From the IMG/VR virus record IMGVR_UViG_3300042301_001596, positions 1,441 through 65,440 of that record: a DNA stretch of 64,000 nt, one strand, 5' to 3'. Of the stretch, positions 6,233 through 54,936 are shown in pieces. Positions within the stretch are counted from its first letter, which is position 1. The number at the start of each line of letters is the position of its first letter. The stretch comes from a virus. Lineage: Duplodnaviria; Caudoviricetes. The notes under the pieces were generated by a model that saw only the letters and a program-made list of their open reading frames with translations, ran no database searches and had not been told where the DNA came from. The position numbers and the translations under genes are program-made.

Positions 6233-6852
6233 AATTGAACTCAAGCATACCCAGCTTTAAAGGATTAGTAAAGAAGTCCTACTTTACAAAAGACCCCAAA
6301 GATACCAATGAATACTACAATGTTTATGTATTTGGGATTCAATCAGTAGGCGGCAAGATAGTTACGTTCCATGTATTAACCGATTCAGGTATGTTAAGAA
6401 GTAGAGTTCCAATATCAGAAATATATACCAAAGTTCCGACAAACGATATACCATTCTATTACAAGCAATTATGGGATTGTTTTAGTGAGAATGTAGCAGT
6501 TGTTGAGTACGAGTTTTTAGCCTTCCATAAGGCACAAGTAGTGTTAAGAGATGGCAGTAAGGTATGGGCTACATATATCTTAACTATTGACTGGTATAAC
6601 AATCCATATAGCAAAGAACCTTCCGACTACAAGTGCGGTCATTTGCTTGAATCTGATGATGGATATTTGTTGTGTATGCCTAACAATAGGATCTTTTGGA
6701 AGGACTCTAATTTTGTAACCAAGCCCCTACCAGATGATTTAAAGCAGTTTAAGGTAGACACTGAACTTCCTTCCGTAGAAAACCAATCGGATAGGTGGGT
6801 TGCAGAAGATACCAATTCATTTTATTACGATATAATAGAAACAAACAAATAA
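6229..6852 (+). CDS. conserved phage protein of unknown function
   Basis: 207-aa ORF with QLWDCFS, TIDW, KCGH and PNNRI motifs, recalled from aquatic phage proteins. Confidence 0.7.
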   Translation: MKLNSSIPSFKGLVKKSYFTKDPKDTNEYYNVYVFGIQSVGGKIVTFHVLTDSGMLRSRVPISEIYTKVPTNDIPFYYKQLWDCFSENVAVVEYEFLAFHKAQVVLRDGSKVWATYILTIDWYNNPYSKEPSDYKCGHLLESDDGYLLCMPNNRIFWKDSNFVTKPLPDDLKQFKVDTELPSVENQSDRWVAEDTNSFYYDIIETNK

Positions 6853-6959
6853 AGGTAGTAATACTACTATAATGTGCGATAAAATGCACATAAATTTGGA
6901 ATTTTATCCTATATAAAACAAGTTATTGTAACAAATCAAATAACCTAAAAACAAAAAAC

Positions 6960-7121
6960 ATGAAAAAATTAACTGGTATTTTTCAAATTTTATTTTTCTT
7001 TTTAGTTGGCATACCAGCTTTCATTTTACTTTACGGAACAATTATAATTTCCTTTGCAATAAAGGAGTTAATCACTATCATCATCTTCTGGAGGCGCAAG
7101 GTCAATTTGGATAACAGATAG
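6960..7121 (+). CDS. small membrane protein, not in ORF track
   Basis: manual translation MKKLTGIFQILFFFLVGIPAFILLYG..., 53 aa; TAAATTTG element at 6891. Confidence 0.45.
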   Translation: MKKLTGIFQILFFFLVGIPAFILLYGTIIISFAIKELITIIIFWRRKVNLDNR

Positions 7122-7256
7122 TATCTTCAGGTCTTTATATTTTTGTAGCACATCAGACATTGAAACGGCATAAACCAATTTAGTCATTTTGGTCCCTTCC
7201 TTTTCAAAGAATATGCGGTACGTTTTCATCAGTTTTGCCATTTGCCTTTTGGACAA
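7068..7256 (-). CDS. hypothetical protein
   Basis: 62-aa ORF, last gene of the - strand block. Confidence 0.45.
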   Translation of the reverse strand: MSKRQMAKLMKTYRIFFEKEGTKMTKLVYAVSMSDVLQKYKDLKILSVIQIDLAPPEDDDSD

Positions 7257-7453
7257 CCCTCTGCCCCTTTTGGTGAGAAAACTTTTTTACTTGTTGTGCA
7301 GCCACATACTTCACAATAGTCCCGTAATGTACCCTGAACCCAGTGTTCACAATCAAAACAAGTTAAGAGCCTTTCTTGAGCAAGCTGACTTTCTTCCTCT
7401 GTTGGATTCATAGAAGCTGCATAGGACAGGAATATTTCTTTTAACTTGTTCAT
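7229..7453 (-). CDS. small Cys-rich Zn-binding protein
   Basis: RxxxCxxC...CxxCGC...CPxxKW pattern. Confidence 0.7.
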   Translation of the reverse strand: MNKLKEIFLSYAASMNPTEEESQLAQERLLTCFDCEHWVQGTLRDYCEVCGCTTSKKVFSPKGAEGCPKGKWQN

Positions 7454-8310
7454 ACGAATAAATTGGTATAATCGGAGTGTTCACCCCAGTAATTATGAGT
7501 TAAAGATAAATTATCTTTGCGATATATTGAATTATGGCTGGTAAAATGTATGCCATGGTTGATATGGATAGCTTGATTTTCGCAGTTCCATCGGCTTCTA
7601 TTCATTGTTTGAGTTTCAATCATACCGCTATTAGTACGCAAAGCATTGGGTAAAATGGCTAAGCAATGCTCAATGGCATCGTCAAATCTCATGGTCATTT
7701 GGTGAAACGGCTCATCATTTTGGCCTCTCTCTTGCCACCCATCAATGCAAAGACCTCCGTAATTCATATTGGTAAGTACGCTGCCTCTATCAAAATCAGG
7801 GAAATCAAAGTAACCCTTTGGGTACATTACATCATGCTCTAGGAAAGAAACGTAATCATATTCGCCAGTTTCTTTTGCAGAATAAAGGCATTGCATAATT
7901 TGGAGCAACTGATTAAGATGCGACTGGGACTGATACCAGCTTCTAACTTGGTAGAATGGGTTTTCCGGCATAGGCTCCCACATACAAGTTACAATGTCTG
8001 CTACTCCATTACTGGCTTGCTTAATTGTATCTAATGACTTGTATATTGATGGCCATATATTTTTGTTGTTGTTGTTGGAATAGAATATACCCAATTTTTT
8101 ACTTTTGGACTTAGGGTATACAAACACACTACCTTCTCTAATGCTGAAGATATTGCCGTCTATATCCAATTCCAGATATTTAACATGACCAACTGCTGGA
8201 TCCCCTATAATATCATTATTAGCTCTTACCACGAGCTTATCCGATACTATTTTATCCTTAATCAATTGGGTACAATCTTGACCTCCGTATGTTGCTTTAT
8301 TTATAATCAT
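7450..8310 (-). CDS. lectin-like (SUEL/DUF3395-type) domain fused to a GT-A glycosyltransferase
   Basis: N-term IxKATYG...IIGDPAVGHVKYL; C-term FLEHDVMY DxD-like motif. Confidence 0.6.
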   Translation of the reverse strand: MIINKATYGGQDCTQLIKDKIVSDKLVVRANNDIIGDPAVGHVKYLELDIDGNIFSIREGSVFVYPKSKSKKLGIFYSNNNNKNIWPSIYKSLDTIKQASNGVADIVTCMWEPMPENPFYQVRSWYQSQSHLNQLLQIMQCLYSAKETGEYDYVSFLEHDVMYPKGYFDFPDFDRGSVLTNMNYGGLCIDGWQERGQNDEPFHQMTMRFDDAIEHCLAILPNALRTNSGMIETQTMNRSRWNCENQAIHINHGIHFTSHNSIYRKDNLSLTHNYWGEHSDYTNLFV

Positions 8311-8984
8311 ATATCTATATTATATTTCCTCTTGTATACTAAAGACCAAAAATTAGTACAACCTGTATGATAATACTTTTCTTCATCATCTAATTCTAAT
8401 GAATTTTCACCTAAATACCAAGGAAGATGTTTAGCAGTATAAGGTTGAGGAAGCCTACTCCCATAATAAAATTTATCTCCACAATCCCACCCTTCTGTTT
8501 GCCTTTTCCTATCATACATTGCAAATGTAGTATCAACACCAGCTATATAATTACCTAAATAATCTTTATCATTCCAGTATTTTGATTCACATCCAATTAC
8601 GGCTTTAGCATATTCGGTATCTGGCAAATCATATATATCTAAAGATAAACCACATTTGGTGATATTTTTATTATCCAATCCATTTATTAATTTATCAACG
8701 TAATCCGATGGGACTGAAGAAATATCTAAATCATGATCCGTTACAATATAATACTCATCATTGTATTCATTAAACAATTTAGAATCCCAAAAAATCCTTT
8801 CCCCGTATCTATCTTTGAAAGTATGCACCTTAAAAGGACAATTTTTATACCATTCTAACAATGGCGGATAAGTAGATGAATTGTCCAAAAGAATCGGTTC
8901 GCATCCAGTATCAGCTAAATTTTCAGCTAATTTTTTAGGTATTGTCAACCTATTATACATTATTATGAAAGCTTTTATTTTCAT
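8307..8984 (-). CDS. GT2-like glycosyltransferase
   Basis: FIIMYNR, ILLDNSS, YYIVTDHDL (DxD) and VDTTFA motifs. Confidence 0.75.
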   Translation of the reverse strand: MKIKAFIIMYNRLTIPKKLAENLADTGCEPILLDNSSTYPPLLEWYKNCPFKVHTFKDRYGERIFWDSKLFNEYNDEYYIVTDHDLDISSVPSDYVDKLINGLDNKNITKCGLSLDIYDLPDTEYAKAVIGCESKYWNDKDYLGNYIAGVDTTFAMYDRKRQTEGWDCGDKFYYGSRLPQPYTAKHLPWYLGENSLELDDEEKYYHTGCTNFWSLVYKRKYNIDI

Positions 8985-9910
8985 ATTAAAACCGATTTTT
9001 TAGCTGTTTCTTGTATTATATCCCAATATTTTTTACTGGCAGTACCTTCTTTTATATCTAATGTTGCACTATAAGGCAACTGGTTCATGTACTCTGCTTT
9101 ATAGAATAAGCCACCGGCAGATGTAACAACACCGGCATTGTGAAATATATTTAATCTATCCCAATCCGCTTCGGTACTTGTACCCCATGAAAATTCTAGT
9201 TCTGGGTGACAAATGGTTTCTGCTCCACGTTTCCAGCCGTTCCACAAAACCGCCCACATGTCTGCGCACCATATCTGTAACTCATGATGAGTTGGATCTA
9301 ATTGCTTCTTTTGATTATTGAGGTGCGTTACTTCATAAAATAATCTTTCGCAATCTCTTTCAACGTCCGCCCAAAACTGCGCATCAATACCTTTCATCAG
9401 GTACTGCGCTCCGATTGAGTTTAGTTCATTATCTTTTATGAGTGATTCAGGTATGTCCACTATCTCACACATTTTATCTATTACGTCTTGGCCTTTGCCT
9501 AATATGTAGCTATGTCCTATGTACCAGCGACAATCGGATCCGTACCACTTATCATCTTGTAGGAACTGCTCCCAATCTATTTTCTTTGTAAACGCAATGT
9601 CGCAATCGTGATAAAGAATAGCTTCACCATTCAAGTAATCATTTGCTTCAAAATGCTGCTTTAATATGTTTGGACGTATTGAGGATATGTAATGTCTGCT
9701 TTGTCTGGTATCTTCATAGAAAAAGAAACGAGCTGGATAATTAGCCGCTAGTTTGCTCCATTCTTCTGGTACTACATTGTTAATCTTCCAGCAAACAATA
9801 TCAATCATGTTGGGGTTGATACCCATTTCAATAAAGTTATTTATCATAACTTCTACTTGCCATGCATAATAAAGTGAGGTTGGTTGAGCGCAAATGAACC
9901 TTAATTTCAT
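8981..9910 (-). CDS. peptidyl O-glycosyltransferase-like protein (plant SGT1 GT96 / HPAT GT95-like)
   Basis: YYAWQ, YISSIRP, ILYHDCDI and WCADMWA parallel the SGT1/HPAT motifs WQ, YxxxNKP/NRP, LDADM and WxxEMY; start likely 9910. Confidence 0.6.
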   Translation of the reverse strand: MKLRFICAQPTSLYYAWQVEVMINNFIEMGINPNMIDIVCWKINNVVPEEWSKLAANYPARFFFYEDTRQSRHYISSIRPNILKQHFEANDYLNGEAILYHDCDIAFTKKIDWEQFLQDDKWYGSDCRWYIGHSYILGKGQDVIDKMCEIVDIPESLIKDNELNSIGAQYLMKGIDAQFWADVERDCERLFYEVTHLNNQKKQLDPTHHELQIWCADMWAVLWNGWKRGAETICHPELEFSWGTSTEADWDRLNIFHNAGVVTSAGGLFYKAEYMNQLPYSATLDIKEGTASKKYWDIIQETAKKSVLI

Positions 9911-9953
9911 GTATTTTTTTTCCAAAGTTAACCGACTTAATTAAATTAAAAAA

Positions 9954-10574
9954 TTATTTTTTGGAATAAAACTGAATCATGTGCTTGGCTATCTTTTCTG
10001 GCACTCTTTTGTAGCTTTTTTGGAAAGTAGTTGGAGCCATATTTATTAGAACTTGATCTCTGTAAATATCAGTAGGGAACTTCTTTAACTTATCCATTAG
10101 ACCATAGCTATAAAGGTATATATTAGCCTTTTGGGTATACAATGATAGGTTAATTGGCAACCCCCATTTCTTTATCTTTTCCACCGCTCTCATCTCACAA
10201 TCCTTTTCTAATTCTATCATGTCATCAAGCATCTTGGACACCTGACTCTTATTCATAATCTTATCTCCTGAGAGCCATGCCCACATATTACCGCATGATG
10301 TACCCCATTTATCCCACCTTTCATCTGATTTCCATTGATCCATGTGAGAGGACTCGTGTACTAATATTTCGGACCACATGGCAAATGGCTTACCACAAGC
10401 AACCACCAGAACTTTATCATCTCCGTCAAAGTAACCACCGCACTCTGTTTCAAAGTCACCAGTTACTACAACCTTTTTGCTTGGCGATAAGACAAGCTCT
10501 ATCTTATACTCCCTACATTGCCTTTTGACAGAATTGATAAACGGCTTAAACTTATCATCTATAGGGAATTTCAT
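9954..10574 (-). CDS. zincin-like metallopeptidase
   Basis: ILVHESSHMDQ (HExxH) with downstream ExDCE. Confidence 0.65.
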   Translation of the reverse strand: MKFPIDDKFKPFINSVKRQCREYKIELVLSPSKKVVVTGDFETECGGYFDGDDKVLVVACGKPFAMWSEILVHESSHMDQWKSDERWDKWGTSCGNMWAWLSGDKIMNKSQVSKMLDDMIELEKDCEMRAVEKIKKWGLPINLSLYTQKANIYLYSYGLMDKLKKFPTDIYRDQVLINMAPTTFQKSYKRVPEKIAKHMIQFYSKK

Positions 10575-10798
10575 TTATTTGGATTGTTGATTATTCTTTC
10601 TATGTACCAGATTGCTTTTTTTAGATCCTCCTTCCCTCCTTTACGCTTCCACCTCCACAAATACTTTATGGCATTGCCAATGGCAAATGCTTCATCTCCG
10701 TCCAACCCTTTTATTGCTTCGTCAATTGCGTCTATACACTCAATTTTTCCAACGTTATAATGTGCTGGGTGGTCTACTTTAGATAATCCTTCCTTCAT
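10571..10798 (-). CDS. DUF3310 family protein
   Basis: VDHPAHY...IECIDAI...GNAIKYLWR...EDLKKAIWY signature. Confidence 0.9.
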   Translation of the reverse strand: MKEGLSKVDHPAHYNVGKIECIDAIDEAIKGLDGDEAFAIGNAIKYLWRWKRKGGKEDLKKAIWYIERIINNPNK

Positions 10799-14857: not shown

Positions 14858-16213
14858 ATGCCAACTAGCTTTCAATTCTTCAAACAAGAGGTAAGGGATT
14901 ACATAGTAGATAACGTAGACATAAACAAAAAGATATTAGATGTGGGGGCTGGTATTGGCACCTATTCTGATATGCTAAAAAACTATGGTTACTACATGGA
15001 TTGCGTAGAGATATACGAACCTTATGTAGTTAATTATCAATTAGATAAGAAGTACAACAATGTATTTATACAAAGCGTAGTTGGTTTCCATTTTGACTAT
15101 TACGAGTTCATTATCATGGGTGATGTGCTTGAGCATTTATCTGTGGAAGATGCACAAAGTATCATCAGAAAGATAGTCCATAGCGGTAAGCAATGTCTGA
15201 TAGCGGTGCCATATCTTATGGAACAGGGAGAGCATGAAGGTAACATCCATGAAACCCATTTGCAGCCTGACTTAACTCCGGCAGTCATGGAAACCAGATA
15301 CCCAGAACTTAGATTACTTTATGCTAACCAGTATTATGGCTACTATGTAAACAGAACCCATAAGCATGAGAAAGCCTACCTATTGTACGCTGATGACTCT
15401 TATTTTGATTTGGTCCAAGTATGCGCTGAATCTATCCGTAAGTTCAGCAGCCTACCGATATTAGTATACATGCTCAACTCTGATAAGAAGATTCCCGACA
15501 TAGAAGATACCAAAACAATTAGATGGGATTGTGATGTAAAGCACCTGAAACAAAGGTCCGACTACATTGATAGATCCAATAAAAGCATCTACAAACTACT
15601 AATACAAAGACCTTTAATAACCAAACATGCACTTGAAAACTATGCTGAAACGATTGCGTATGTGGATTCTGACTCTGTGGCTAGTCCATTTGTTGACAAC
15701 ATCTTTACTTTCTATAATGAAGAATCTAGTCACCCCTATTTTACAGAAGGTATCTATGAATATCTTATGGTCAATGGTAGAGGCGGCGCTGAAAGTAGGG
15801 CGGATTTAAGCACTACATTAGAAGCACCAGCCTGTGAGCTATTCAATATAAACCAGTATGTCCGTAACAGATACAGGCAAACAGGATATTATGTTGCAGG
15901 GCAGAACACCATTGAATTTTTAGATGAATGGTTCTGGATGTGTAACCACCCTAAAGTATTAAAGAACCACAACTATTACGCACCCTTCCATGAAGAAACC
16001 ATACTTCAAGCCCTTCTGTATAAGCGTATGACATTTTCAGGACTACCATACTGCTACATCAATGGACTACATAAAGACCTAAAATTTACTGGTCATGATA
16101 ATTTAATAGGGCCATGGATTAAAGTACCTTCACATAAAGAACATTTACTATTCTATCATGGAGAAAAGAACATTGAAAAGATTAAAGAATTTATAAACCA
16201 ACTAAACAAATAA
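14858..16213 (+). CDS. SAM-dependent methyltransferase fused to a GT-A glycosyltransferase
   Basis: ILDVGAGIG and GDVLEHL (class I MTase); AYVDSDS (DxD) and FYHGEK in the C-terminal domain. Confidence 0.8.
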   Translation: MPTSFQFFKQEVRDYIVDNVDINKKILDVGAGIGTYSDMLKNYGYYMDCVEIYEPYVVNYQLDKKYNNVFIQSVVGFHFDYYEFIIMGDVLEHLSVEDAQSIIRKIVHSGKQCLIAVPYLMEQGEHEGNIHETHLQPDLTPAVMETRYPELRLLYANQYYGYYVNRTHKHEKAYLLYADDSYFDLVQVCAESIRKFSSLPILVYMLNSDKKIPDIEDTKTIRWDCDVKHLKQRSDYIDRSNKSIYKLLIQRPLITKHALENYAETIAYVDSDSVASPFVDNIFTFYNEESSHPYFTEGIYEYLMVNGRGGAESRADLSTTLEAPACELFNINQYVRNRYRQTGYYVAGQNTIEFLDEWFWMCNHPKVLKNHNYYAPFHEETILQALLYKRMTFSGLPYCYINGLHKDLKFTGHDNLIGPWIKVPSHKEHLLFYHGEKNIEKIKEFINQLNK

Positions 16214-16306: not shown

Positions 16307-16519
16307 ATGACACCAAAAGAAAAAGCACAAGAATTATTTGATAAAATCTACAATATAAGTGGCTTAACAAAAGAATCTAAACAAATTTCATTAATAGCAG
16401 TAGATGAAATATTAAAAGAATATGCACACGCAGAAAATCATATTGAAGATATTATGGGTAAAATAAGTATCTATATAAAGTATTGGCAAGAAGTTAAAAC
16501 AGAAATAGAATTATTATGA
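16307..16519 (+). CDS. MTPKEKA-family small phage protein
   Basis: MTPKEKAQEL...AVDEIL...YWQEVKxEI; paralog at 59623. Confidence 0.7.
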   Translation: MTPKEKAQELFDKIYNISGLTKESKQISLIAVDEILKEYAHAENHIEDIMGKISIYIKYWQEVKTEIELL

Positions 16520-18570
16520 GAATATTATTTTTAGCTCCGCATCTTAGCACAGGAGGTTGCCCCCAATTCATTCTTGGAAGGCTTGGTAGCATGAAGAATC
16601 ACACTGACAACGAATACTATGTAGTAGAATATCAATGCCATGGATTAGATTATGTGGTACAAAGAAACGATATAAAGAACCTAATTGGTAGTAATTTTAC
16701 TACCCTTTATGAAAATAAAATGATTCTATTTGATGTGATAGATTACTTCCAGCCTGATATAATCCATATAGATGAAATGTCTGAAAGATTGGATAGAGAG
16801 ATGGTAAGGAGGCTTTACAATCCAGATAGAAAGTATCGTATCGTAGAAACCTGCCATGACATCTCGTTTGATCCGAATAGCAAGTTATTTCACCCAGACT
16901 TATATTCATTCTGCACTCCGTATCATGAAGAAACTTTTGCTGATTTGGAATCCAAGTATGTTACAATACTTTATCCAATAGAGGAAATTAATCTTAGTAA
17001 ATTCAAGACTATCTGGCAAGATGAATTAGGCTTTGATAGAAACAAAAAGCATGTGCTGAATGTTGGCTTATGGACTCCGGGGAAGAATCAAGCTGAAGGA
17101 ATAGAAATAGCCCGTAAATATCCTGATATGATGTTTCACTTTGTAGGCAATCAGGCTGGGAACTTTAAGCACTACTGGGAACCATTGATGCAGAACTTAC
17201 CACCAAATGTAAAGGTATGGGGAGAGCGAACAGATATTGATCACTTCATGATAGCATCAGATGTATTTATGTTTAATAGCACATGGGAATGTAACCCAAT
17301 TGTACTTCGTGAAGCCATAAGTTATGGGCTACCTATTGTTGCGCGGAATCTTCCGCAGTATGCCGGAATGTATGATAACTACACATACTCAATAGATGCT
17401 GATTTAGAATTGATAGCTAAGTACAATAATATTACATACGATATACCAAAAGACAATACTACAGGTGATTTTGCAAGAGCGCATCAAGTAGCTTATGAAA
17501 AGATATTAGAACTCCCAGCACAAGTACAAAAGGTCCGCATCTTACAAAACTTCATTAATCACCCTTTCCTTGAAATAAAAGGAGAAAGCGATAGTGAATT
17601 TGATGTTAGATTTTATGATGAGAATGATGTATGCCAATACCAAAGTGTAATCAAGAGTAATAGCTGGGTAAGGCTCAATAGACAATACTATACTAAATGG
17701 AAAACGTATGTATATCAGGACGGAGAATTAATCTATGAAAACGTATTGGATTTGCATAGTAAAAGGGTATTCATATCAATAGAAAGTAGCGCGCTTGGAG
17801 ATACTATTGCATGGGTTCCGTATGCTTTAGAGTTCCAAAAGAAGCATGGTTGCAAGGTTGTGTTGTCCACTTTTCATAATAAAATACTGGACTACCCTGA
17901 ACTTGAATTAGTAGAACCCGGCAGCTCTGTTAATTGTTATGCCATGTATAAGATTGGTTGGCACTATGATACCAATAGAGAACCAGAACTGCCAAACACA
18001 ATACCACTACAAAAGGCAGCGTGTAATATTTTGGGCTTAAAATACACTGAAATTCGCCCCAAATTATTTACCAAGAGAGATTGCCCAGAGCATGATAAAT
18101 ACATCACTATTGCCACTAATTCTACCACAGGATGCAAGTTTTGGGTAAGGGAAGAATGGCAGAAGCTAATTAACCATTATACCGAACAAGGCTATAAAGT
18201 ATACAATGTTTCCAAAGAAGTAAATCCATTTGATAATTGCCCACAGATACCAGATACATCAATGGAATCAACAATGGATTGGATATACCATAGCACATTC
18301 TTCGTAGGACTCAGCAGTGGTTTATCGTGGCTCGCGTGGAGTTTAGGTAAGCAAGTTGTACTAATAAGCAACTTTACTGAATTTGACCATGAGTTCCTTA
18401 CCAACTGCATACGAATCACAAATGAAAAAGTATGTCATGGATGCTGGAACAAACCAGAAATAAAATTTGATAAAGGCAATTGGAATTGGTGTCCTTACAA
18501 TAAGAACTTTGAGTGCCAGACTTCAATCACCGCAGAGATGGTAATAAATAGAATTAGTCGTTACTTATAA
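16516..18570 (+). CDS. GT4 glycosyltransferase fused to an Aah/TibC (BAHT)-like protein O-glycosyltransferase
   Basis: N-term HLSTGGxPQ, KNQ, SxWExNPIVLREA (GT4); C-term SALGDTIAW, GLSSGLSWLAW, CHGCWN...WCP...FEC four-Cys iron-finger pattern. Confidence 0.85.
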   Translation: MRILFLAPHLSTGGCPQFILGRLGSMKNHTDNEYYVVEYQCHGLDYVVQRNDIKNLIGSNFTTLYENKMILFDVIDYFQPDIIHIDEMSERLDREMVRRLYNPDRKYRIVETCHDISFDPNSKLFHPDLYSFCTPYHEETFADLESKYVTILYPIEEINLSKFKTIWQDELGFDRNKKHVLNVGLWTPGKNQAEGIEIARKYPDMMFHFVGNQAGNFKHYWEPLMQNLPPNVKVWGERTDIDHFMIASDVFMFNSTWECNPIVLREAISYGLPIVARNLPQYAGMYDNYTYSIDADLELIAKYNNITYDIPKDNTTGDFARAHQVAYEKILELPAQVQKVRILQNFINHPFLEIKGESDSEFDVRFYDENDVCQYQSVIKSNSWVRLNRQYYTKWKTYVYQDGELIYENVLDLHSKRVFISIESSALGDTIAWVPYALEFQKKHGCKVVLSTFHNKILDYPELELVEPGSSVNCYAMYKIGWHYDTNREPELPNTIPLQKAACNILGLKYTEIRPKLFTKRDCPEHDKYITIATNSTTGCKFWVREEWQKLINHYTEQGYKVYNVSKEVNPFDNCPQIPDTSMESTMDWIYHSTFFVGLSSGLSWLAWSLGKQVVLISNFTEFDHEFLTNCIRITNEKVCHGCWNKPEIKFDKGNWNWCPYNKNFECQTSITAEMVINRISRYL

Positions 18571-19022: not shown

Positions 19023-19433
19023 TTATGGGGCTTCTGTTGTAGAAGTTGTTGTATCAGGGGCTTCTGTTGTAGTAGTTGTAGTAGGAGCCTCTGTAGTGGT
19101 AGTCGTAGTGGTACTTGGCACAGGAGGAATATACTCGCCTGTAATTGTCAATTTAAGTTGTGTTGCTGCCCAATTATATATCCAATTATTTGCATCTGAT
19201 GAAGTGTCCCAATCTAGGTAATCTTGTCCTGATATATTCAATGAACCATTTACCAAAGTATTAAACATAGGGTAAGGAGCTGGAGTAATTGGGCTTGTAA
19301 TAACCTCATTTAATTGATATTGAAAAGTTGCATTTGTAGATAAGTTATCAAAAGAAGATGTTAATACAAATACTGTTGCTTCTTTTTCTTCGCCATTTTG
19401 CCAAGACAAAATTGGTTCAATTGTTTTTGCCAT
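19023..19433 (-). CDS. tail-associated protein with C-terminal mucin-like Thr/Pro tail
   Basis: ends PSTTTTTTTEAPTTTTTTEAPDTTTSTTEAP. Confidence 0.7.
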   Translation of the reverse strand: MAKTIEPILSWQNGEEKEATVFVLTSSFDNLSTNATFQYQLNEVITSPITPAPYPMFNTLVNGSLNISGQDYLDWDTSSDANNWIYNWAATQLKLTITGEYIPPVPSTTTTTTTEAPTTTTTTEAPDTTTSTTEAP

Positions 19434-19660: not shown

Positions 19661-20533
19661 TTACAAACCAAATCTTGCTTTAGTAGCATTATAATTTTGT
19701 AGAACCTCCGCAGCAGTTAATTCTCTGTTATATACATGTAATAATGCAATTTGCTGGTTTGCTCTAAAATCAAAATTCGCTGTACACCAACCTGCTGTAG
19801 AAGCTCTTAAAACAGGAGTATTGGTAGGAGTTGATGTTGCAATAAGATTCCCGTTTCCATATACCCTCATTCTTGATGAAGTTCCGGGGAGCCATGTACC
19901 AACCATATATAACCAAACATTATTGCTAGGGAATGTTCCACCTCTTGCTAAAGGCTGGGTAATAGCAAGTGTAACTGGGTCTACACCAACCCCCACTGAC
20001 ATCCACTGAGATGTACTAGGTGTTGATTTCCCAATAAATAAACTCCAACCATTTTGTTGAAACTGACCAAGATCTTGTCCTCTTTCAAACATAGTATAAC
20101 CAGTACGAGTTTCTTGCACGTTAAACCATCCTCCAAATGAAAAGGCACTATCATCAGCTCCTTTTGCTCCAGCCGAATTTGGGAATGATATAAATCCAGT
20201 ATTACCAGTTAATGCCATAAATTTTGGCCCAGTAGAATTATAAGCTACTGCTCCAGCAAAGGTGGCATTATATCCATTTCCACTTAAATCAAACCATGTA
20301 GTTCCAGTTCCCGGATAAGATTTAGGACTACTAGCATCCACATATATATTTAGGCCACTTGTAATGATAGGGATTGCGCTATAACCATAGAATTCACTAA
20401 TAGCATCAGGACTAGAAAATCCAGCATTAGCACTAAGTTGTCTTAGGCTATAAGTTGAAGGGAACCCCCAAACATCAACCTGTTCATTTCTAATTTGTGA
20501 TATACTCAGTGGTCCACTAACTGGTAAGGGCAT
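19661..20533 (-). CDS. tail protein with LamG/concanavalin A-like domain
   Basis: MPLPVSGPLSISQI phage-tail N-terminus; SYPGTGTTWFDLSGNG...YNRELTAAEVLQNYNA. Confidence 0.85.
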   Translation of the reverse strand: MPLPVSGPLSISQIRNEQVDVWGFPSTYSLRQLSANAGFSSPDAISEFYGYSAIPIITSGLNIYVDASSPKSYPGTGTTWFDLSGNGYNATFAGAVAYNSTGPKFMALTGNTGFISFPNSAGAKGADDSAFSFGGWFNVQETRTGYTMFERGQDLGQFQQNGWSLFIGKSTPSTSQWMSVGVGVDPVTLAITQPLARGGTFPSNNVWLYMVGTWLPGTSSRMRVYGNGNLIATSTPTNTPVLRASTAGWCTANFDFRANQQIALLHVYNRELTAAEVLQNYNATKARFGL

Positions 20534-23500
20534 TGATTATAGATTTAAGTTCTTCAATTTGTTTCTGCTGCTCTTTAAATGCTTCAATGAATAATCCTGC
20601 AAAGTTACCATATTTAACACCATACTCGTCTATATCCTTTGCATACGAAACAGCTTCTGGTAACACTTGATTTACTTCTTGTGCAATAACCCCAAGCTGC
20701 CTTCCTTTTTCTTCTTCACCAATTTTATCATAAAATACACCACGAAGATTTGTCACTTTTTCAAGAGCGTTATCTATAGTGATTATGTTATTTTTCTTAC
20801 GAGCATCAGAGAAAGCAACCACATCGCCAGTTGCAAAAATAGCTCCCTCAACATATAATCTATAAGATGTTGAGTTAGTTGATGTACCTATTGACAATCT
20901 ACCTGTTCCATATAGAGAATAGAATATCCAACCACCAGCATAACCTATATCATGCAAACCTATATCCGTAGACACTCTACCCATTAAATTAAATTGTGTC
21001 CCAACACCATACCCTGCCCAACCATTTCTGCCGCTACCATGTGTTGCTACATTACCATAAGTATTACCTTCTGCATCTGGAGAACGAAGTCCATAACCAT
21101 ATGAATTAAAATATAATCCTCCAGTTCCATTTACATAAAACCAATCACTTGTGCTTACTGAACCACTTACATTTAATGGTCCACTTGACCAACTCCCATA
21201 TAACTGACCACCACCAGATGTTGTACGCACAGCCCAAGATCCACCATTTAAAAGACCAAAATTACCACCAGTTTCTCCATATACATAACCTACAACTGCT
21301 GAATCATAATTAGATCTAAACTGCAGTCCAAAAGTAGATGTACCAGCACCAGTTATAGACCAATAACTAGTACTATCTGCGTAAAAATGGCTTCCATAAG
21401 TTTGGCTGTATAATCCTAGTCTTCCAGTGACTCTATACCAACTATTGTTGTATATACCATTAGCATCATTTATGCTATTATTATTTAAATACATAGTACC
21501 ATACAACCAATTCGTACCTTGACTATAAATACCTGCTGGATGATATGTTGCTTCACCTGTTCCTCCTACGTTTGCGTTGCCACGATAAGCAGCAGACCGA
21601 ACGTTACCACTTGTATCAATAGTAAACGACCATGTATTACTATAACCTACGTTATCAAACCTTACTGTATTTACATTAGTTGTCCAGTTACCTCCAGATC
21701 CTGTTGTTCTAGTTCCCCAACTTCCAACCGAGCCAGCAGTTCCAGCCATGTACATAAAACCAGATGCATGAGCGTCTCCGTTTACACTAAGCCTTACATC
21801 TGCAGTTACACCTAAGCCAAGATTTCCTGCAATTTGCATGTTGCCAGTTGTTGAGTTCAATGCAGCAATCGGAGCAACACCAATTCTACCCCAAGTAAAT
21901 CCTCTACCTGTACTTCCAGCATCCATTTGCATTTTGATGGAATAATCAATAACGGGTCCATATTGGTATAAACTTCCAACACCCATTGATATTTTATATT
22001 CATCGGATGACCAAAATCTAACTCCATTCCCATCACCGGGGGTTACATTATAAAAAGGATTTACATTAGAACCATTAGGGGCGCTACCTGCTGATCCTGT
22101 TATATTAATCCCCCATGTACCACTTGCTCCGCTACCTGTTAAACTTGGAGCGTAACTTGTATAATTACCACTATGCAAAAATTGATACCATGTAGCGTTC
22201 CAACTACTATTAATACCATTTCTTAAAGCTAATCCGGGTAACCCTGAAGCGTTCACTCCACTCCAATTACAAAAAGCTAATTGATATGAAGAATCTCCTG
22301 TACTTGCAGATGTACCATCCCAAGGAGAGTATGTCATTACACCAGCATAGTTACCAGTTGCACCAGTTACACTACCAGCGGTTGCAAAATCATATCTTAC
22401 AGACCTTGGGTTTGTTGTTGGTAAAGCAAATGTGTTAGGGTTTCTACTACCATCAGGAGAAGCTACAAAAGTAGTAGTTGTTGCAGATGTAGCATTACCT
22501 GTAATACTAATACCCCAAGTTCCACTAGCTCCCCCACCTGTTAGTGTTGGAGCGTAAGAGTTAAAGTTAGCTGCGTTAAGAACTTGATTACCATTTTGAG
22601 TAATTGCTCCAATAAAGTTTGCATTACCAGAAGCATCAACTGTACCTACACTACCTCCAGCACCATTACAAAATATTACACCTCCTGTTCCATGATCAAA
22701 GTTAAAGAACAATGCATTTGTTTTTGCACTGATGATACTATTACCAGTAGCTGGATTAGTTCTAAAATCTCCATAAGCTGTTGAACCATCACTGCCTCCA
22801 GTATAAAATCTAAAAGCATTTGCTAATATTGTAGTTCCAGTTGAGGTAAGTGTACTATTAATTGTTAATGGTACATTAAAGTTAGCATTAGCCTCATCTA
22901 TAGTTAATCCTGTTGTCCAAGTAACTGTACCACCAGAAGGAGATGTTCTAAATTCATGTCTACCATTACCTAAATGTTGAATATAAGCCATGGATTTTCT
23001 AGTAGGGTCATCTTGTGACCATGCTCCACTAAAAAGAGCATTAGAAGTAAAGTTTAAACCATTTGAATCAGAACCTAGTCTAGCAGGAGCAATAACTCCT
23101 GTTGTTACGAGCCTCCATTTTTCCCATGTTGAGGTTGAAACAATATTACCACCAGTATTTAAAGTAATAGCTGTTGATGTTGATGCACCACGACCTGTTA
23201 CTGTAGCTAGTGTTTCACTACCTGCTGTACCTGTAATATTAATACCCCAAGTACCTGAAGCATTAGCACCAGTTGTTGATGGAGCGCCTATAGTATTATA
23301 AGAAAGAGTTCTAGGAACAGAACCATTATATGTTGTTCCTGAAGCGTCCCCTGCTCCACCACTATTCATAGTTAAAACATTGGAGAAAGCTTGGGTTGCT
23401 CCTGAGCTTCCAGATGTGCCACTCGTTCCAGAAGTTCCGGAAGTACCAGACGTGCCGGTAGTTCCACTTGTACCACGAGAACCTGAAGTTCCACTTGAAC

Positions 23501-36969: not shown

Positions 36970-39900
36970 TTAACAAGATGTTTCGTTTGTTAATGTACCA
37001 TTACCTCCTGTGATTAACCAATTATTTACCCCATTAGAATAATAATTATCAGGTACAACAGTTGTTAGAGCGGAGTCTTGATAAACTACTACACTATTAG
37101 TTAATACTGAAGATGCTGAATAATAGTTTAAAGGTGTGCCTGCAAAATCAATACAAGCTAAAGCGCCGCTAGTTGAATCTACCCCTAGTGGAAAAGTATA
37201 AAAAGACAAAGTTGTTGTTGTTGTTGTTGGCGGCAAAGTAGTAGTAGTAGTACTCGTACTAGTAGTTGTTGTAGTTGGAACTGCAGTTGTAGTCGTAGTT
37301 GTTGGAGCCGCAGTTGTTGTTGTGGTTGTGCTTGTACTAGTCGTAGTAGTTGTGGTACTTGTTGTAGTACTAGTTGTTGTGGTTGTCGGAACCGCAGCTG
37401 CTGTTGTTGTAGTAGTTGTCGGAGCCGAAGTTGTAGTGGTCGTAGTAGTAGGTGTACATGACGAACAAGCACTCGTAACTGTTGCAACAGGGTTTCCATT
37501 AGTTACAGATACTGATACATATTGGCCTCCAAAAGACACATACCATGTACCTGTTGCTGCTGCTGCAAATATTGCGCCTGTGAATGTAGTACAATTACAG
37601 AAAATAGGACTATCACCTGTTACAGTTCCTGATGCTGCAAACCCACAAGCATCTTCAAAAGCTCCACCAAAACCAATTAAAAATGATAGTGTAGTAGTAG
37701 TTGTTGTTGTAGGCGCTAACGTAGTTGTTGTTGTCGTAGTTGGCCCAGCAGTTGTAGTTGTAGTTGTTGATGTAGTCGTTGTAGTCGGAGCAGCGGTTGT
37801 AGTTGTAGTTGTTGATGTAGTCGTTGTAGTCGGAGCAGCGGTTGTAGTTGTACTTGTTGTTGTTGTTGTTGTATTACATTGAACAAAATTACCTGCTATA
37901 ACATTAAGATTAAAATATACAGTCGTATTTGAGTTTATTGACGGAATTATTACAGGATTTGATTTACCACATAGTGATGCAAAATCTCCACTAGTATTAC
38001 CTAATCCATATTGAATGTCATTACCAGATGTATTAGTTATAGCAAGATAAGGTGTAGATCCTTGGCTAAATGTTTGTCCAGAATAAAGATCATAAAGCGG
38101 ATAGTTGCTAGTATTAAATGTAGATTGTTGCCATAATGTCCAATTTAATCCAAAATCTAAACTATACCATAATTGTATTAATTGTCCAGTATTAGAAAGT
38201 TCTGATATTCTCCAATCAACATCAAAGAAAAGATTTGATGTTGTTGTGGTAGTCGTAGGCGCAACCGTTGTTGTAGTAGTTGTGGTGCTAGTCGTAGTTG
38301 TAGTAGGCGCAATAGTGGTAGTTGTAGTTGTACTAGTAGTAGTTGGAGCAGACGTAGTAGTAGTTGTAGAAGGAGGTAAATACCTATTAATTTCCTCCAT
38401 TGCAATAATATACTTGTTTGTATTAGCATCAAATACACCATATATACAAGGATTACCAGAATATACAGCACCTGTTGCAGGTACACCATTATTCAAGTCT
38501 TGTCTATAAGCAGCCAGTGTTGCTACAAAAAAAGCATTTGTCTTGTTAGTAATGCTAATAGGAGTTATACCATCTTGAGCCAATCTACACACCACACCTC
38601 TAAAATTATCTACAAAGTAGTCAGCATAGTTGTTCCATGCAAGACTTGTAGCAGCATCACCAATACCATAATCACCAGCATAATACTGAATCTTATTAAT
38701 TAATTGATTACTATTAGCTTGTAATGGATTTCCAGTTACATCTTTTACAATTTGAGTTAAGATAGGTACATTACCAACTTTAAAATTCTGGTAAACCTTT
38801 AAGTATCTATCTCTAACATGCAATCTCAATACATCACCAAACGACCTATCATACTCATCAAAATCCTCGTAAATAAATCTATTTGTAGCATTAAGATTTG
38901 TATTTGATTGATATGCCTGACCAAATCTAATTAATGTAGGGAAATATGTTTTTGAAGCATTTTCATCTATTACAGAAGGCCTTCCGTTACTATTTGTAAT
39001 TAAATTATATGTATCGTTAAAGCTATTTTCAATAATTTCAATTTCAGAGCCTTTTAAAACCTGAAATTCAAATGTCATTGGTTGAACAAATATACTATTT
39101 GAACCAACTGCATCATTTGTAGATTTAGCTACAATATACACTTTACCTGTTTGAGGAACAGTGATTTGCTTATCAATAGTAAATGTGGTATCTACGTTTT
39201 GTTTTATATCATTTACTTCAATTGGAAGCAATGAAATAGTAAACTTAGGCGATAATGGAACTAAATTAGTACAAATAAGAGCATAAACAGAAAACTGTGA
39301 TGTACCATCTGATGCCATATTAAATGTTCCCTTTATAGAAACAGGTTGCTGTAAAGTTGTAGACTTGTTATAGAAAAAATATCCAATATCAGACCAAACC
39401 GGATAACTTGCTCCAGTTAAGGACACATTTACATTCGGTTGTGTTTGTATTCTATATGATGCATTATCAATAGCTGTATTAACAGTTATTGGAAATGATA
39501 CACTTCTTGATACAAAGGCACCGGACACTCCAATATTAAATTCTCCAGACCTGTATTCATATTTATCGCTATAAGGAACTCTTCTCAATCTATAGAACAA
39601 GTCACCATTATTAATAGCAAGAGTTGTTCCTCCGTTAGGAAGTTTTGTCAAACCATAGTGATACCTTGTTGGCAATCCCGCATCTCCAATTCCATACTGC
39701 TTACCAAACTCATAGAAAAATCTTTGAGTTGAAGAAGCATTGTTTGTATAATTGTACAATAATATTTCATAGTGTTGCCAATCTTCAGTTCCGGGAAATT
39801 GGAATGTACCATCAATATCACTATTTGGGTATCTTACTTTTAGAAAATTACCAACCGCTGTATTGGTATTATTGTTAGCTGTTGTAGTATATTCAATAGT

Positions 39901-41826
39901 AGAAAGCGTACCAACGATTTCATAGTCAAATTGACTGGTGATATTTTGAGGATTACCAGCAACATCATATCTCCTTATAAATTTAATTCTATCACCTTCT
40001 GTGTAATTGTAAGAAACAACATTTTGGGTTGAACTAATTTGGTCATTATATTCTTGGATATTACCAATACCTATGTAAACAAATTTTGTATTATCTATAC
40101 CATCAGGTAATGAAGTGTAAGCCGAATCACTTACCCAGCAAAGACGTTTATTGTAAGTTGTATTATTAGATCTAACAATCTGATAATAAGAAGCATATAA
40201 TGGAGGTCTATTTAAAATAGATAAATTAACCAATGGAAAATCATCTGAAAGAACTCTTGATGGAGTATTAATTATAGCATTTTTTGATGTTTGTGTACCA
40301 ATTGTTCTACCTTGTGCATCAAAGTATTGAATACCATATTGATAACCACCATTCCAAACATTTGCAAATCTTGTATTGTCATTATCTAATGCAGGTATTG
40401 TAGCAAAAGCTGTTGATGTCAATACAAAACCACCTGCATAAGTCATAGTTAGCTTATTACCAACTATTGGGCCATCTTGAGTATATCCCTCTGAAACCAT
40501 AGCAGCAGATATGCCAGCTAAAATATCACTTACTAAATAATTAGTAGTAAGTCCCGTAGTTGAATAAGATGTACTTAAATCAGTTCCGCTTGAACTAAAA
40601 GAATTAATAAAATAAGTACCTGCCGCATTATTCAATTCAATAACATTGCCATTTACATCATTTGTACCTGTACCATATAGATATATTTCCATTTTAGTAC
40701 CTGCGCCACTATCATTACCATTTACTGATGCAAAGAAAGATATACCACATTGGTCATAATTATAACTTGATGCAGTAGAATATGTAGTTGCTTCTAAGTT
40801 AACCTCTGTTTTATCATACCCTTCTAAAATACCTGCATATAATAATACGTTACCATTTGCAAGTTCTGCTGCATTGGCTCTTTGTGGAACCCAATCTTGC
40901 AACTGATCTGCTTCTATAACATCAATTTGAGTATATATAGAGTCATTATAAAACCTGAAATAATAAATATCATTATTATCTATTCCAAGAGTATCTTTAT
41001 CAAAAGACTTTATTAGGTACCAATCACTTGTCCCATTACTAAATGTTTCTCTAAAAGCAACTTCAATAGCTTTAACATCAGTATCTCCTGTTGAAAAGTT
41101 AATAGCAATTCTTGAATTGTAAGTATCACTTATGTCATTTGTAAGCGTTAATGATGGCTGTTGAGGCAAAGGAACTATGCTCTTTGAACTCCATACAGAC
41201 TTTTCATTATTATCATAAACGTATCTATAACAAAATTGAAATAATTTGTTTCTTAAATTATTAATAGTAATTGTAGTATCGTTCTCGTAAGTAACTTGAG
41301 GCGGCATTACTGGAGGAGCTTTTGCTACAAGCAAATATTCCGCTACCCAGTCAGTTCCATATAGATTGTTTACATTTAGTACCCTAGGAGGATTATATCC
41401 ATCATTAAAGAATAATAAATCACCTTCTAAATCCCTATAAAATATATTAATTGATAAAACCTTGTAAGAAGGGTTGAAATTTAAAATATCAACACCATTA
41501 CTATTTGTCTTACTTTGAAGAACGGTTGTTATAGACTGTGTATTTAAGTCATAATAAGCGATGGTATGGAAACCATCACTATTCCAGATAAAATAATAAG
41601 CCCTGTTCCTTACCTTATCTCCATAAAATCCAATAACCTTACTTACTCCACTAGGCAAGCTGTAGTTTATTAAAGTATTTCCTAAAATATTAGAAACAAC
41701 TTTATCCTGACCACGACCTTGTGCGTCTTTTGTGACGTTCAATGCATCTACATAATCATTATTACTAATTCTGTATTCTGCATCATCTAGGTTTAATTTA
41801 CCACTAAAGGGAGTATTTATTATCAT
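36970..41826 (-). CDS. tail stabilisation/muzzle protein with mucin-like C-terminal extension
   Basis: KLNLDD..YVDALN, FFNDGYNPPR, FQFCYRYVYD, YAGDYGIG, DxxRGVVCRL motifs; poly-Thr tracts after about residue 1150. Confidence 0.8.
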   Translation of the reverse strand: MIINTPFSGKLNLDDAEYRISNNDYVDALNVTKDAQGRGQDKVVSNILGNTLINYSLPSGVSKVIGFYGDKVRNRAYYFIWNSDGFHTIAYYDLNTQSITTVLQSKTNSNGVDILNFNPSYKVLSINIFYRDLEGDLLFFNDGYNPPRVLNVNNLYGTDWVAEYLLVAKAPPVMPPQVTYENDTTITINNLRNKLFQFCYRYVYDNNEKSVWSSKSIVPLPQQPSLTLTNDISDTYNSRIAINFSTGDTDVKAIEVAFRETFSNGTSDWYLIKSFDKDTLGIDNNDIYYFRFYNDSIYTQIDVIEADQLQDWVPQRANAAELANGNVLLYAGILEGYDKTEVNLEATTYSTASSYNYDQCGISFFASVNGNDSGAGTKMEIYLYGTGTNDVNGNVIELNNAAGTYFINSFSSSGTDLSTSYSTTGLTTNYLVSDILAGISAAMVSEGYTQDGPIVGNKLTMTYAGGFVLTSTAFATIPALDNDNTRFANVWNGGYQYGIQYFDAQGRTIGTQTSKNAIINTPSRVLSDDFPLVNLSILNRPPLYASYYQIVRSNNTTYNKRLCWVSDSAYTSLPDGIDNTKFVYIGIGNIQEYNDQISSTQNVVSYNYTEGDRIKFIRRYDVAGNPQNITSQFDYEIVGTLSTIEYTTTANNNTNTAVGNFLKVRYPNSDIDGTFQFPGTEDWQHYEILLYNYTNNASSTQRFFYEFGKQYGIGDAGLPTRYHYGLTKLPNGGTTLAINNGDLFYRLRRVPYSDKYEYRSGEFNIGVSGAFVSRSVSFPITVNTAIDNASYRIQTQPNVNVSLTGASYPVWSDIGYFFYNKSTTLQQPVSIKGTFNMASDGTSQFSVYALICTNLVPLSPKFTISLLPIEVNDIKQNVDTTFTIDKQITVPQTGKVYIVAKSTNDAVGSNSIFVQPMTFEFQVLKGSEIEIIENSFNDTYNLITNSNGRPSVIDENASKTYFPTLIRFGQAYQSNTNLNATNRFIYEDFDEYDRSFGDVLRLHVRDRYLKVYQNFKVGNVPILTQIVKDVTGNPLQANSNQLINKIQYYAGDYGIGDAATSLAWNNYADYFVDNFRGVVCRLAQDGITPISITNKTNAFFVATLAAYRQDLNNGVPATGAVYSGNPCIYGVFDANTNKYIIAMEEINRYLPPSTTTTTSAPTTTSTTTTTTIAPTTTTTSTTTTTTTVAPTTTTTTSNLFFDVDWRISELSNTGQLIQLWYSLDFGLNWTLWQQSTFNTSNYPLYDLYSGQTFSQGSTPYLAITNTSGNDIQYGLGNTSGDFASLCGKSNPVIIPSINSNTTVYFNLNVIAGNFVQCNTTTTTTSTTTTAAPTTTTTSTTTTTTAAPTTTTTSTTTTTTAGPTTTTTTTLAPTTTTTTTLSFLIGFGGAFEDACGFAASGTVTGDSPIFCNCTTFTGAIFAAAATGTWYVSFGGQYVSVSVTNGNPVATVTSACSSCTPTTTTTTTSAPTTTTTTAAAVPTTTTTSTTTSTTTTTTSTSTTTTTTAAPTTTTTTAVPTTTTTSTSTTTTTLPPTTTTTTLSFYTFPLGVDSTSGALACIDFAGTPLNYYSASSVLTNSVVVYQDSALTTVVPDNYYSNGVNNWLITGGNGTLTNETSC
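37751..37840. repeat. exact 45-bp tandem duplication within a poly-Thr tract
   Basis: GTTGTAGTTGTAGTTGTTGATGTAGTCGTTGTAGTCGGAGCAGCG at 37751-37795 and 37796-37840. Confidence 0.9.
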
Positions 41827-42602: not shown

Positions 42603-42875
42603 TTAATTATTTGAAAAATAAGCTAATATATCGTTATGACGAATCAAAAAATGCAATTCATTATTTACAACAACAGGCTCTCCTGCTCCCTTAATATGGA
42701 AAATGCAATCATCTTTTTTGGCTTCCATTTTTACTTTAGCAGTTCCGCGACCTACAGAAATTACTTTTGCTTTGCTACTTCTTTCCCTAAATCCTTCAGG
42801 GATAAATAATCCGCCTTCTGTAATTTCATCAGCCATAAATGGTTTCACTAAAACAAAATCTCTAATTGGTTTCAT
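42603..42875 (-). CDS. groES: co-chaperonin GroES
   Basis: MKPIRDFVLVK...TEGGLFIP...VISVGRG...IRHNDILA. Confidence 0.85.
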   Translation of the reverse strand: MKPIRDFVLVKPFMADEITEGGLFIPEGFRERSSKAKVISVGRGTAKVKMEAKKDDCIFHIKGAGEPVVVNNELHFLIRHNDILAYFSNN

Positions 42876-54157: not shown

Positions 54158-54250
54158 TTTAATTAATTTAATACAAATGTAGAACTAATTTAATTAATTT
54201 AATACTTTTTTTTAAAATAAAAATTAGTAAATTTTAAGTATATTTGTTAA
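54158..54250. promoter_or_regulatory. divergent promoters
   Basis: TACATTTG on - (54174-54181), TATATTTG on + (54239-54246), AT boxes at 54158 and 54187. Confidence 0.65.
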
Positions 54251-54280: not shown

Positions 54281-54637
54281 ATGGCAAATCATGTATCGGT
54301 TTATGTTTATCGTAGAAATCAATACGATTTAACGAACCCAAATGGAACACCTGCAACAAATGGTGTATTATTCACTTTACCAACTGCTAACTTACAGGTT
54401 CAACCTTCTACAGTTGTGGCAAATGGTGTACAAATGAACTCATTAATTCTTATGTACCCAAGTGGCCTTAATCAACCAGCTGAAAAATTATACAGTAACG
54501 CAACTGTTGCTGGTTTAATTGCAGCTATTAATGGAAATGGTATTCAAACTACAACAACAACAACAACAGTAGCACCGACCACCACCACTACCACTACAGC
54601 GGCTCCTACAACCACTACTACAACAACAGCACCTTAA
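54281..54637 (+). CDS. putative virion decoration protein with poly-Thr tail
   Basis: 118 aa; ends TTTTTTTVAPTTTTTTTAAPTTTTTTTAP. Confidence 0.7.
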   Translation: MANHVSVYVYRRNQYDLTNPNGTPATNGVLFTLPTANLQVQPSTVVANGVQMNSLILMYPSGLNQPAEKLYSNATVAGLIAAINGNGIQTTTTTTTVAPTTTTTTTAAPTTTTTTTAP

Positions 54638-54672: not shown

Positions 54673-54936
54673 ATGGCACAAATAGTATCAATTACAGCAT
54701 ATCAAAGAAATCAATATGCTTTATTAAACCCTAACGGAACTCCAGCAACATCTGGTATTGCTTACGGATTCCCAGTTGAAGGATTTGTAGCTTACCCAGC
54801 TCCTTCTGGATTTGTAGCAAACGGAGTAACTATGAACTCAATAGTTGAAGTAGCTCCAACAGGCTTAAATCAAGTACCTGTTTACTTCTACACAAATGCC
54901 ACTGTAGCGCAAATTAATGCAGCTGCAAACGCTTAA
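54673..54936 (+). CDS. paralog of 54281..54637 without the Thr tail
   Basis: shares RNQYxLxNPNGTPAT, VANGVxMNS, PxGLNQ and YxNATVA. Confidence 0.75.
   Translation: MAQIVSITAYQRNQYALLNPNGTPATSGIAYGFPVEGFVAYPAPSGFVANGVTMNSIVEVAPTGLNQVPVYFYTNATVAQINAAANA

Follow-up and report, generated by a model that had tools for sequence, protein, structure and literature searches.

What a phage would glycosylate with a soluble transferase of its own is the question raised by a 309-amino-acid (aa) protein encoded in IMG/VR virus record IMGVR_UViG_3300042301_001596, a tailed-phage genome of 65,440 bp rated 100% complete by CheckV. The stretch of 64,000 nt analyzed here (positions 1,441 to 65,440 of the record; hereafter the window) spans nearly all of that genome and has a G+C content of 34%. 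The pairing typical of virion O-glycosylation, i.e., a phage glycosyltransferase (GT) together with threonine-rich (Thr-rich) stretches on a virion protein, is present in the window, and Thr tails are found in relatives. We consider it fairly likely that the 309-aa enzyme initiates sugar addition on poly-threonine (poly-Thr) stretches of the phage's own proteins and that the products of later genes extend the glycan. As genes of this family accompany Thr runs on particle proteins in many unrelated phages, the phage probably sugar-coats its own particle.

The open reading frame (ORF) of the enzyme begins with an ATG at position 9910. An in-frame TTG at 9925 would lengthen the ORF, but the ATG was preferred because the N-termini of family members match this start. 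The six motifs listed in the initial annotation were all found, in the order given there: YYAWQ (residues 14-18), YISSIRP (74-80), HDCD (101-104), GAQYL (167-171), WCADMWA (214-220), and IFHNAG (255-260). In an alignment of 48 family members with 32-68% identity, residues Y74, D104, Y130, G167, M218, W223, F240, H257, G260, and K271 were invariant, while W17, Q18, D102, Q169, Q212, W214, and W219 were kept in at least 90% of the members. Since most of the motifs contain residues conserved across these 48 relatives, the alignment indicates that they are more than chance. The protein was assigned by PHROGs to phrog_4417 ('unknown function'; E 2.5e-63), with residues 4-302 aligned to profile positions 2-291 of 293. 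No family was matched at E≤1 in either Pfam or NCBIfam.

The structure predicted by AlphaFold2 from the 48-row alignment consists of one globular domain (pLDDT 97.8, pTM 0.93), in which the first strand begins at residue 3 and no membrane segment is present. The PDB matches listed by Foldseek were GT-A glycosyltransferases only (WbbM, UGGT, Skp1 alpha-galactosyltransferase, glycogenin, LgtC, and GT6 blood-group enzymes). A structure search of the viral library BFVD returned two family members at the top, including LP65 Orf49, followed by GT8-labelled proteins. Both features of GT-A membership were observed, namely a single Rossmann-like nucleotide-sugar domain and a DxD motif at the end of the central strand; H101-D102-C103-D104 directly follows strand 97-101, the usual GT-A site. 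By overall fold, the top matches are GT8 members, and H257 is invariant. On the basis of the predicted fold, the protein is a GT-A glycosyltransferase closest to the retaining GT8 type, and we read it as a soluble, metal-dependent, GT8-like enzyme that is probably retaining. By analogy with GT8 enzymes, H257 would serve as the third metal ligand. The likeness to GT8-type retaining enzymes (glycogenin, LgtC, Skp1 alpha-galactosyltransferase Gat1, and GlyE, together with UGGT of GT24) is one of fold, with a structural-alignment identity of 7-13%. In sequence, Pfam Glyco_transf_8 was matched neither by the 309-aa protein (E≤1) nor by the 48 relatives, and searches of solved structures with the single protein and with the 48-row profile gave chance matches only (lectins, E 0.32; TAL-effector repeats, E 0.018). 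Whereas the GT8 motif has a lysine 3 residues past H-x-x-G, the conserved lysine of the phage family lies 11 residues past it.

The acceptor is suggested by the genes that accompany the family. A Thr-rich ORF, defined as one containing a 20-residue stretch with at least 50% threonine, was within reach of the family gene in 62 of 83 loci (80 IMG/VR loci with a family gene at 52-95% identity and three annotated phages). Upstream sequence of 1.5 kb or more was available for 72 of the IMG/VR loci. In 52 of these, the directly upstream, same-strand ORF was Thr-rich, compared to 29 of the 1010 other ORFs (80 aa or longer) from the same loci (odds ratio 88; Fisher p 7e-51, a value that overstates independence, as the loci are related). 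In annotated phages, the family gene was found downstream of Thr-rich proteins in all seven that were inspected, and in five of them (phiFL2B, 1706, vB-SscS-F1, Iacchus, and LP65) at least one of the Thr-rich carriers is annotated as a head, tail, or structural protein. In Enterococcus phage phiFL2B, the family gene (gp49) follows that of a 218-aa tail-module protein (gp48) ending in a long Thr/Ser run, and the head protein has Thr runs at its C-terminus as well; the label 'major tail protein' is attached to gp49 in the phiFL2B record and to gp48 in that of phiFL2A. Lactococcus phage 1706 has a major tail protein and a protease-capsid protein that both end in T9-10 followed by HHD. The Thr-rich pattern was likewise observed in Clostridium phiCTP1, Staphylococcus vB-SscS-F1, and Lactobacillus Iacchus. 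In Lactobacillus LP65, a structural protein annotated by mass spectrometry and a small Thr-rich protein precede the family gene, and two Thr-rich genes lie upstream of it in Chryseobacterium MA9V-3; the carriers in phiCTP1 and MA9V-3 are annotated as hypothetical. Proteins of ~214 and ~400 aa ending in Thr runs were encoded just upstream in 12 of 17 Bacillota genome loci, which are probably prophages. From these comparisons, the linkage of the family to Thr runs on phage particle proteins appears well supported, and it holds despite the kinship of the loci because independent phage lineages agree.

Because the enzyme gene of the window is not adjacent to a Thr-rich gene, we examined relatives of the phage by terminase (81-98% identity) and looked in 27 such records for family members and (ACN)6 runs. 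Thirteen of the records were at least 90% complete; 11 of these carried the enzyme, in every case together with (ACN)6 runs, while the remaining two (G455 and G456) had neither; less complete records were not scorable for absence. The runs were present in G449 (89% complete) and the enzyme was not found there. Three enzyme-bearing genomes (G447, G008, and G023) encode two copies of one small protein, one with a poly-Thr tail (109-125 aa) and one tail-less (87 aa), and the window itself has such a pair (118 and 87 aa; Table 1). In the enzyme-less G455 and G456, only a tail-less homologue of 78-81 aa was found.

Table 1. Enzyme, operon partners, upstream element, and candidate substrates in the window (positions are those of the window).
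Feature	Position	Strand	Remarks
309-aa soluble GT-A glycosyltransferase (predicted), PHROG 4417 family	8981..9910	minus	DxD D102/D104; invariant H257, G260, K271
225-aa GT2-like protein	8307..8984	minus	motifs D34-N35 and D83-x-D85 invariant; overlaps both neighbours by 4 nt
286-aa lectin-like + GT-A protein	7450..8310	minus	E158-H159-D160 at the DxD place; conserved partner of the family
74-aa Cys-rich domain, last gene of the operon	7229..7453	minus	invariant C32, C35, C47, C50, C52, C67
TAACTTTG	9923..9930	minus	12 nt before the ATG; fits TAnnTTTG, presumably the -7 box of Bacteroidota
451-aa methyltransferase fusion	14858-16213	plus	possible glycan extension
684-aa GT4 + GT9 heptosyltransferase-like protein	16516-18570	plus	possible glycan extension
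1618-aa virion structural protein, candidate substrate	36970..41826	minus	phrog_14478; poly-Thr linkers at aa 1154-1197, 1319-1380, 1460-1540
136-aa protein, candidate substrate	19023..19433	minus	C-terminal T7-EAP-T6-EAPD-TTTSTTEAP
118-aa protein, candidate substrate	54281..54637	plus	C-terminal T7-VAP-T7-AAP-T7-AP
Tail-less 87-aa paralogue of the 118-aa protein	54673-54936		

Several observations weigh against tying the poly-Thr stretches to this enzyme. No Thr-rich ORF was within reach at 21 of the 83 loci or, by the same filter, at 58 of 80 bacterial-genome loci, and the lineage of the phage itself, in which the enzyme gene does not stand beside a Thr-rich gene, accounts for 12 of the 20 exceptions to upstream linkage. 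In the reverse direction, 37 of 45 IMG/VR records containing (ACN)8 runs were searched and only two carried the family, leaving exclusivity unsupported; 24 of the 37 had the run within an open frame of 100 codons or more, and many of these records are fragments. A single loss may explain both enzyme-less genomes, and the orthologue of the 136-aa protein in G456 is still Ser/Thr-rich, with a (GTS)n tail in place of poly-Thr. Neither the 136-aa nor the 118-aa candidate substrate has a PHROG family that would tie it to the particle, and Pfam gave only a sub-threshold, composition-type match for the two, on the 118-aa protein. Were the acceptor a non-protein one, such as host envelope polysaccharide, teichoic acid, a lipid carrier, or phage DNA, the Thr runs would simply be flexible linkers in a shared mobile structural module. 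Such an acceptor would agree with the position of the operon next to lysis genes, with the 35 of 37 run-bearing records that have no family member, and with the passages of PMC12619734 in which phage glycosyltransferases are commonly tied to DNA glucosylation and serotype conversion. Nevertheless, it seems to us improbable, given that Thr-rich adjacency recurs across unrelated phage groups and that enzyme and runs were gained or lost together within one lineage. In addition, no DNA base-hypermodification genes were found by PHROGs, and the predicted enzyme, with a fold that starts at its third residue, has no segment that would place it at a membrane.

If the enzyme does act on protein, its place in the pathway is the next point to consider, and here the operon is informative. 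The initial annotation had the enzyme heading an operon of three glycosyltransferases. It does head an operon, but one of four minus-strand genes joined by 4-nt overlaps (Table 1), of which the second resembles GT2 enzymes in its motifs and in one weak match alone (heparosan synthase, E 0.02; 5 loci) and the fourth is Cys-rich. The operon holds at least one further glycosyltransferase besides the 309-aa enzyme. In the 286-aa protein, the N-domain resembles SUEL/rhamnose-binding lectins (5h4s, E 2e-10); in 39 loci its gene comes after the family gene, and in P0123 and P0167 the two are fused. The Cys-rich domain is fused to the family domain in P0123, P0124, P0130, P0142, P0148, and P0153, and in P0153 Pfam DUF6171 is found at its place. 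A complex prediction for the 309-aa enzyme with the 74-aa protein scored 0.01, which bears neither way on binding. The slot after the family gene varied when the corresponding part of the window (8307-8984) was compared with L004, L006, L009, L010, L014, L028, and L046: it is occupied by a 170-aa methyltransferase-like gene in relatives of 89-95% identity, by the 225-aa gene here, and by three other, transferase-like genes in L014. This variable slot between the family gene and the 286-aa gene looks like glycan diversification, and with the first enzyme constant while its partners swap, the arrangement is a variable glycosylation cassette. The methyltransferase and GT4/GT9 genes of Table 1 lie ~5 kb from the operon and are fused to each other in L013/L045.

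These arrangements also bear on whether the enzyme might extend a poly-Thr glycan whose first sugar comes from another enzyme, e.g., the lectin-domain GT-A or the GT4/GT9 protein. The nearest solved folds include enzymes that extend protein-bound glycans (Skp1 alpha-galactosyltransferase, GlyE, and UGGT), and at least four further genes of the phage are sugar-related. We nonetheless think an extending role unlikely and favour initiation, because the enzyme is the constant gene beside the Thr-rich gene while its partners vary, and because no second transferase-like gene is annotated near it in the phiFL2B, phiCTP1, and 1706 loci. The lectin-like domain would also suit the 286-aa partner, rather than the 309-aa enzyme, to the recognition of a sugar that is already present. 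The polypeptide GalNAc-transferases of mucin-type O-glycosylation (GT27), which belong to another GT-A family, offer an analogy only; their lectin domains are ricin-type, unlike the SUEL-type domain of the 286-aa protein. The earlier proposal of an initiating enzyme for Thr/Pro-rich tails is thus upheld as to a DxD-bearing GT-A glycosyltransferase and to a family tied to Thr runs, while the initiating step itself would fit the pattern of a constant member.

Under initiation by the 309-aa enzyme, the pathway would run as follows. The enzyme, cytoplasmic, soluble, of the GT8-like GT-A type, and probably retaining, would hold a nucleotide sugar and a metal ion by means of D102-x-D104 and H257. 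Before assembly, it would transfer the first sugar onto threonine hydroxyls within poly-Thr stretches (runs of T5-7 with AP, VAP, or EAP spacers). In this phage it would act on the three linkers of the 1618-aa virion protein and on the tails with which the 136-aa and 118-aa proteins end. The products of the GT2-like, lectin-domain GT-A, and Cys-rich genes, perhaps with the methyltransferase and the GT4/GT9 protein, would then extend and decorate the glycan to yield a mucin-like coat.

The initial annotation further placed the enzyme with the plant peptidyl-serine galactosyltransferase SGT1 (GT96) and hydroxyproline arabinosyltransferases (HPAT, GT95), and this assignment was not borne out. The Pfam HPAT model PF23452 (cut-off 23.9 bits) did not match the 309-aa protein at E≤1, gave one noise-level match among the 48 relatives (E 0.23, from a relative that was not among the 25 of 48 rows rescanned), and matched none of 80 fused relatives at E≤1e-3 and none of seven phage homologues. 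It was not found on the family gene in the phage's own genome or in sets of 5, 48, and 38 family-bearing records. A search of 401 Bacteroidota genomes for PF23452 was also negative. The negatives from genomes and family-bearing records are weak, in that 14 control genomes were silent too. No HPAT or SGT1 structure appeared among the PDB and BFVD matches listed, the best folds being of GT8 type as described above. The sole pointer to these families came from the ESM Atlas, where 22 of the 30 nearest named clusters are HPAT-labelled, although the label is carried by 10% of the members in the top such cluster. With the HPAT model unmatched and only these labels in favour, membership in GT95 or GT96 is not demonstrated.

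A remote kinship with HPAT/SGT1 may exist, but true evolutionary membership of the plant and algal lineage, beyond a GT8-like analogue, seems to us rather unlikely. Besides the cluster labels, such membership would accord with the prediction of GT95 as GT-A-like (in the portion of PMC8476585 that treats these families) and with the relatedness of GT95 and GT96, both of which, in the account given by the relevant passages of PMC8012813, initiate O-glycans on repetitive proteins. The same portion of PMC8476585, however, predicts a possibly novel fold for GT96, and PMC8012813 describes the HPATs, where it deals with their localization, as type II membrane proteins anchored in the Golgi, whereas the phage protein is predicted to be soluble, with a single globular domain and no type II anchor. 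What the phage enzyme would share with plant HPAT1-3 and SGT1 is the initiation of O-glycosylation on repetitive, proline-containing structural proteins (for the plant enzymes, PMC8012813, in part; for the phage enzyme, the role proposed here), and by language-model features these families are its nearest named clusters. They differ in the acceptor, which is presumably threonine in the phage and hydroxyproline (Hyp) or serine in plants, and no hidden Markov model match connects them.

After the HPAT-labelled clusters, the next named set in the ESM Atlas is Pfam DUF7164 (PF23741), and a DUF7164 gene shares a Bacteroidota gene cluster with a fused family member. An hhalign comparison of the family with 50 DUF7164 relatives gave a probability of 8-9%, with Y-I-[SN]-S-I, DxD, and H...F-x-K aligned in the same order. 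The DUF7164 model was matched by no family member scanned, and PF23741 was not found in 301 Bacillota genomes.

The closest known counterpart of the proposed coat is the virion glycosylation of mycobacteriophage Che8 and its relatives. According to the passages on this subject in PMC12619734 and PMC11256854, capsid and tail-tube subunits are glycosylated at their C-termini by phage-encoded glycosyltransferases, mycobacteriophages are the only phages for which glycosylated particles have been demonstrated, and the glycans are reported to act as an antibody shield. Phages with relatives of the 309-aa enzyme carry poly-Thr tails on these same two protein types, capsid and tail. The system proposed here differs in its unnamed enzyme family, in the near-pure threonine run that would serve as a tag, and in its hosts (Bacteroidota-type and Bacillota), and it is predicted from sequences. 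If the family does read poly-Thr tags, particle glycosylation would be common, which would matter for the adsorption and stability of particles, for mucus binding, and for immune recognition in phage therapy, and a simple pair of tag and enzyme would be available for the production of O-glycoproteins in bacteria. Cultured dairy phages, e.g., Lactococcus phage 1706, make this idea directly testable.

The family is large and widely distributed. Among 3081 candidates from a collection clustered at 90%, 2859 proteins belonged to it at E≤0.001; at 50% identity the family has 864 representatives, and all public names seen were 'hypothetical' or 'uncharacterized'. No paper on the PHROG 4417 family or on poly-Thr tags in phages was found by full-text literature searches. 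Isolated phages account for 77 records, every one below 60% identity, with the hosts Lactobacillus (23), Enterococcus (21), Staphylococcus (11), Lactococcus (8), Clostridium (3), Chryseobacterium (1), and others. Overall, the hosts of phages with the family include lactic acid bacteria, enterococci, staphylococci, clostridia, and aquatic Bacteroidota. A second glycosyltransferase domain (GT2, GT6, GT29, GT7C, GT25, or GT32-like) was present in 22 of 80 longer relatives, and in one of the 80 a radical SAM + SPASM unit was fused to the family domain.

On the chromosomes of Chitinophaga, Pedobacter, Sphingobacterium, and Mucilaginibacter, homologues occur as fusions to a GT2/GT7C-like domain, 559-711 aa in length (L114, L098, L096, L122, and others in L088-L167). 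They sit in lanthipeptide-type clusters with genes for LanB, LanC-like proteins, a C39-peptidase ABC exporter, GT11, and DUF7164, and small leader-type ORFs in these clusters end in Thr runs. Of 80 genome loci, 28 contain a marker of ribosomally synthesized and post-translationally modified peptides, whereas no phage or IMG/VR locus does. The Bacteroidota clusters with fused family members may encode glycosylated lanthipeptides. Taken at its widest, and offered tentatively as a picture that may well prove too broad, poly-Thr would be a portable tag for one dedicated family of soluble GT8-like enzymes. These would build mucin-like coats on heads, tails, and fibres in phages of Bacteroidota, Bacillota, and other hosts, with fast-swapping extension enzymes; the same enzyme, fused to a second transferase, would glycosylate Thr-rich peptides in the lanthipeptide-type clusters, and its ancestry would be shared with the initiators of plant extensin glycans.

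Upstream of the enzyme gene, the initial annotation had marked a short sequence element, and TAACTTTG is indeed found at that place (Table 1). As a word, however, it is not enriched in the window (7 copies vs. 5.6 expected), and neither is the overall count of TAnnTTTG, which we take to be the Bacteroidota -7 promoter box. Placement was more telling: TAnnTTTG ended 4-45 nt before the start of 13 of 83 genes, compared to 2.8 ± 1.6 under random placement (maximum of 9 in 2000 trials), a count that leaves out the site of the 309-aa enzyme, for which the ORF caller took the TTG start. The sites often head gene blocks, e.g., at 54181, 54239, 44213, and 14832. A scan of positions 6700-10700 for sigma-70 promoters and terminators gave nothing above shuffled sequences. 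The placement suggests Bacteroidota-type promoters with very short leaders in the window, and a Bacteroidota host fits with it, as well as with the nearest isolated phage and with the contigs of metagenome-assembled genomes that carry the family.

Other features of the window and its relatives were noted in passing. Immediately upstream of the enzyme gene, positions 9954-10574 encode a 206-aa protein that scores 26.5 bits to DUF6782, a putative metallopeptidase family with a Pfam cut-off of 27, and that is kept in four close relatives. The records L178/L179 are one 59,908-bp IMG/VR contig, classed as having inverted terminal repeats, in which Thr runs are present and the family gene is absent; its terminase occurs twice in opposite orientations, and this doubling is probably a fold-back assembly artefact. 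A 1634-aa tail fibre (20517-25421) has a collagen-like Gly-Thr-Ser stretch at ~aa 144-170. Within the structural module, a GroES-like co-chaperonin gene is located at 42603-42875 (phrog_3188, E 1.8e-14).

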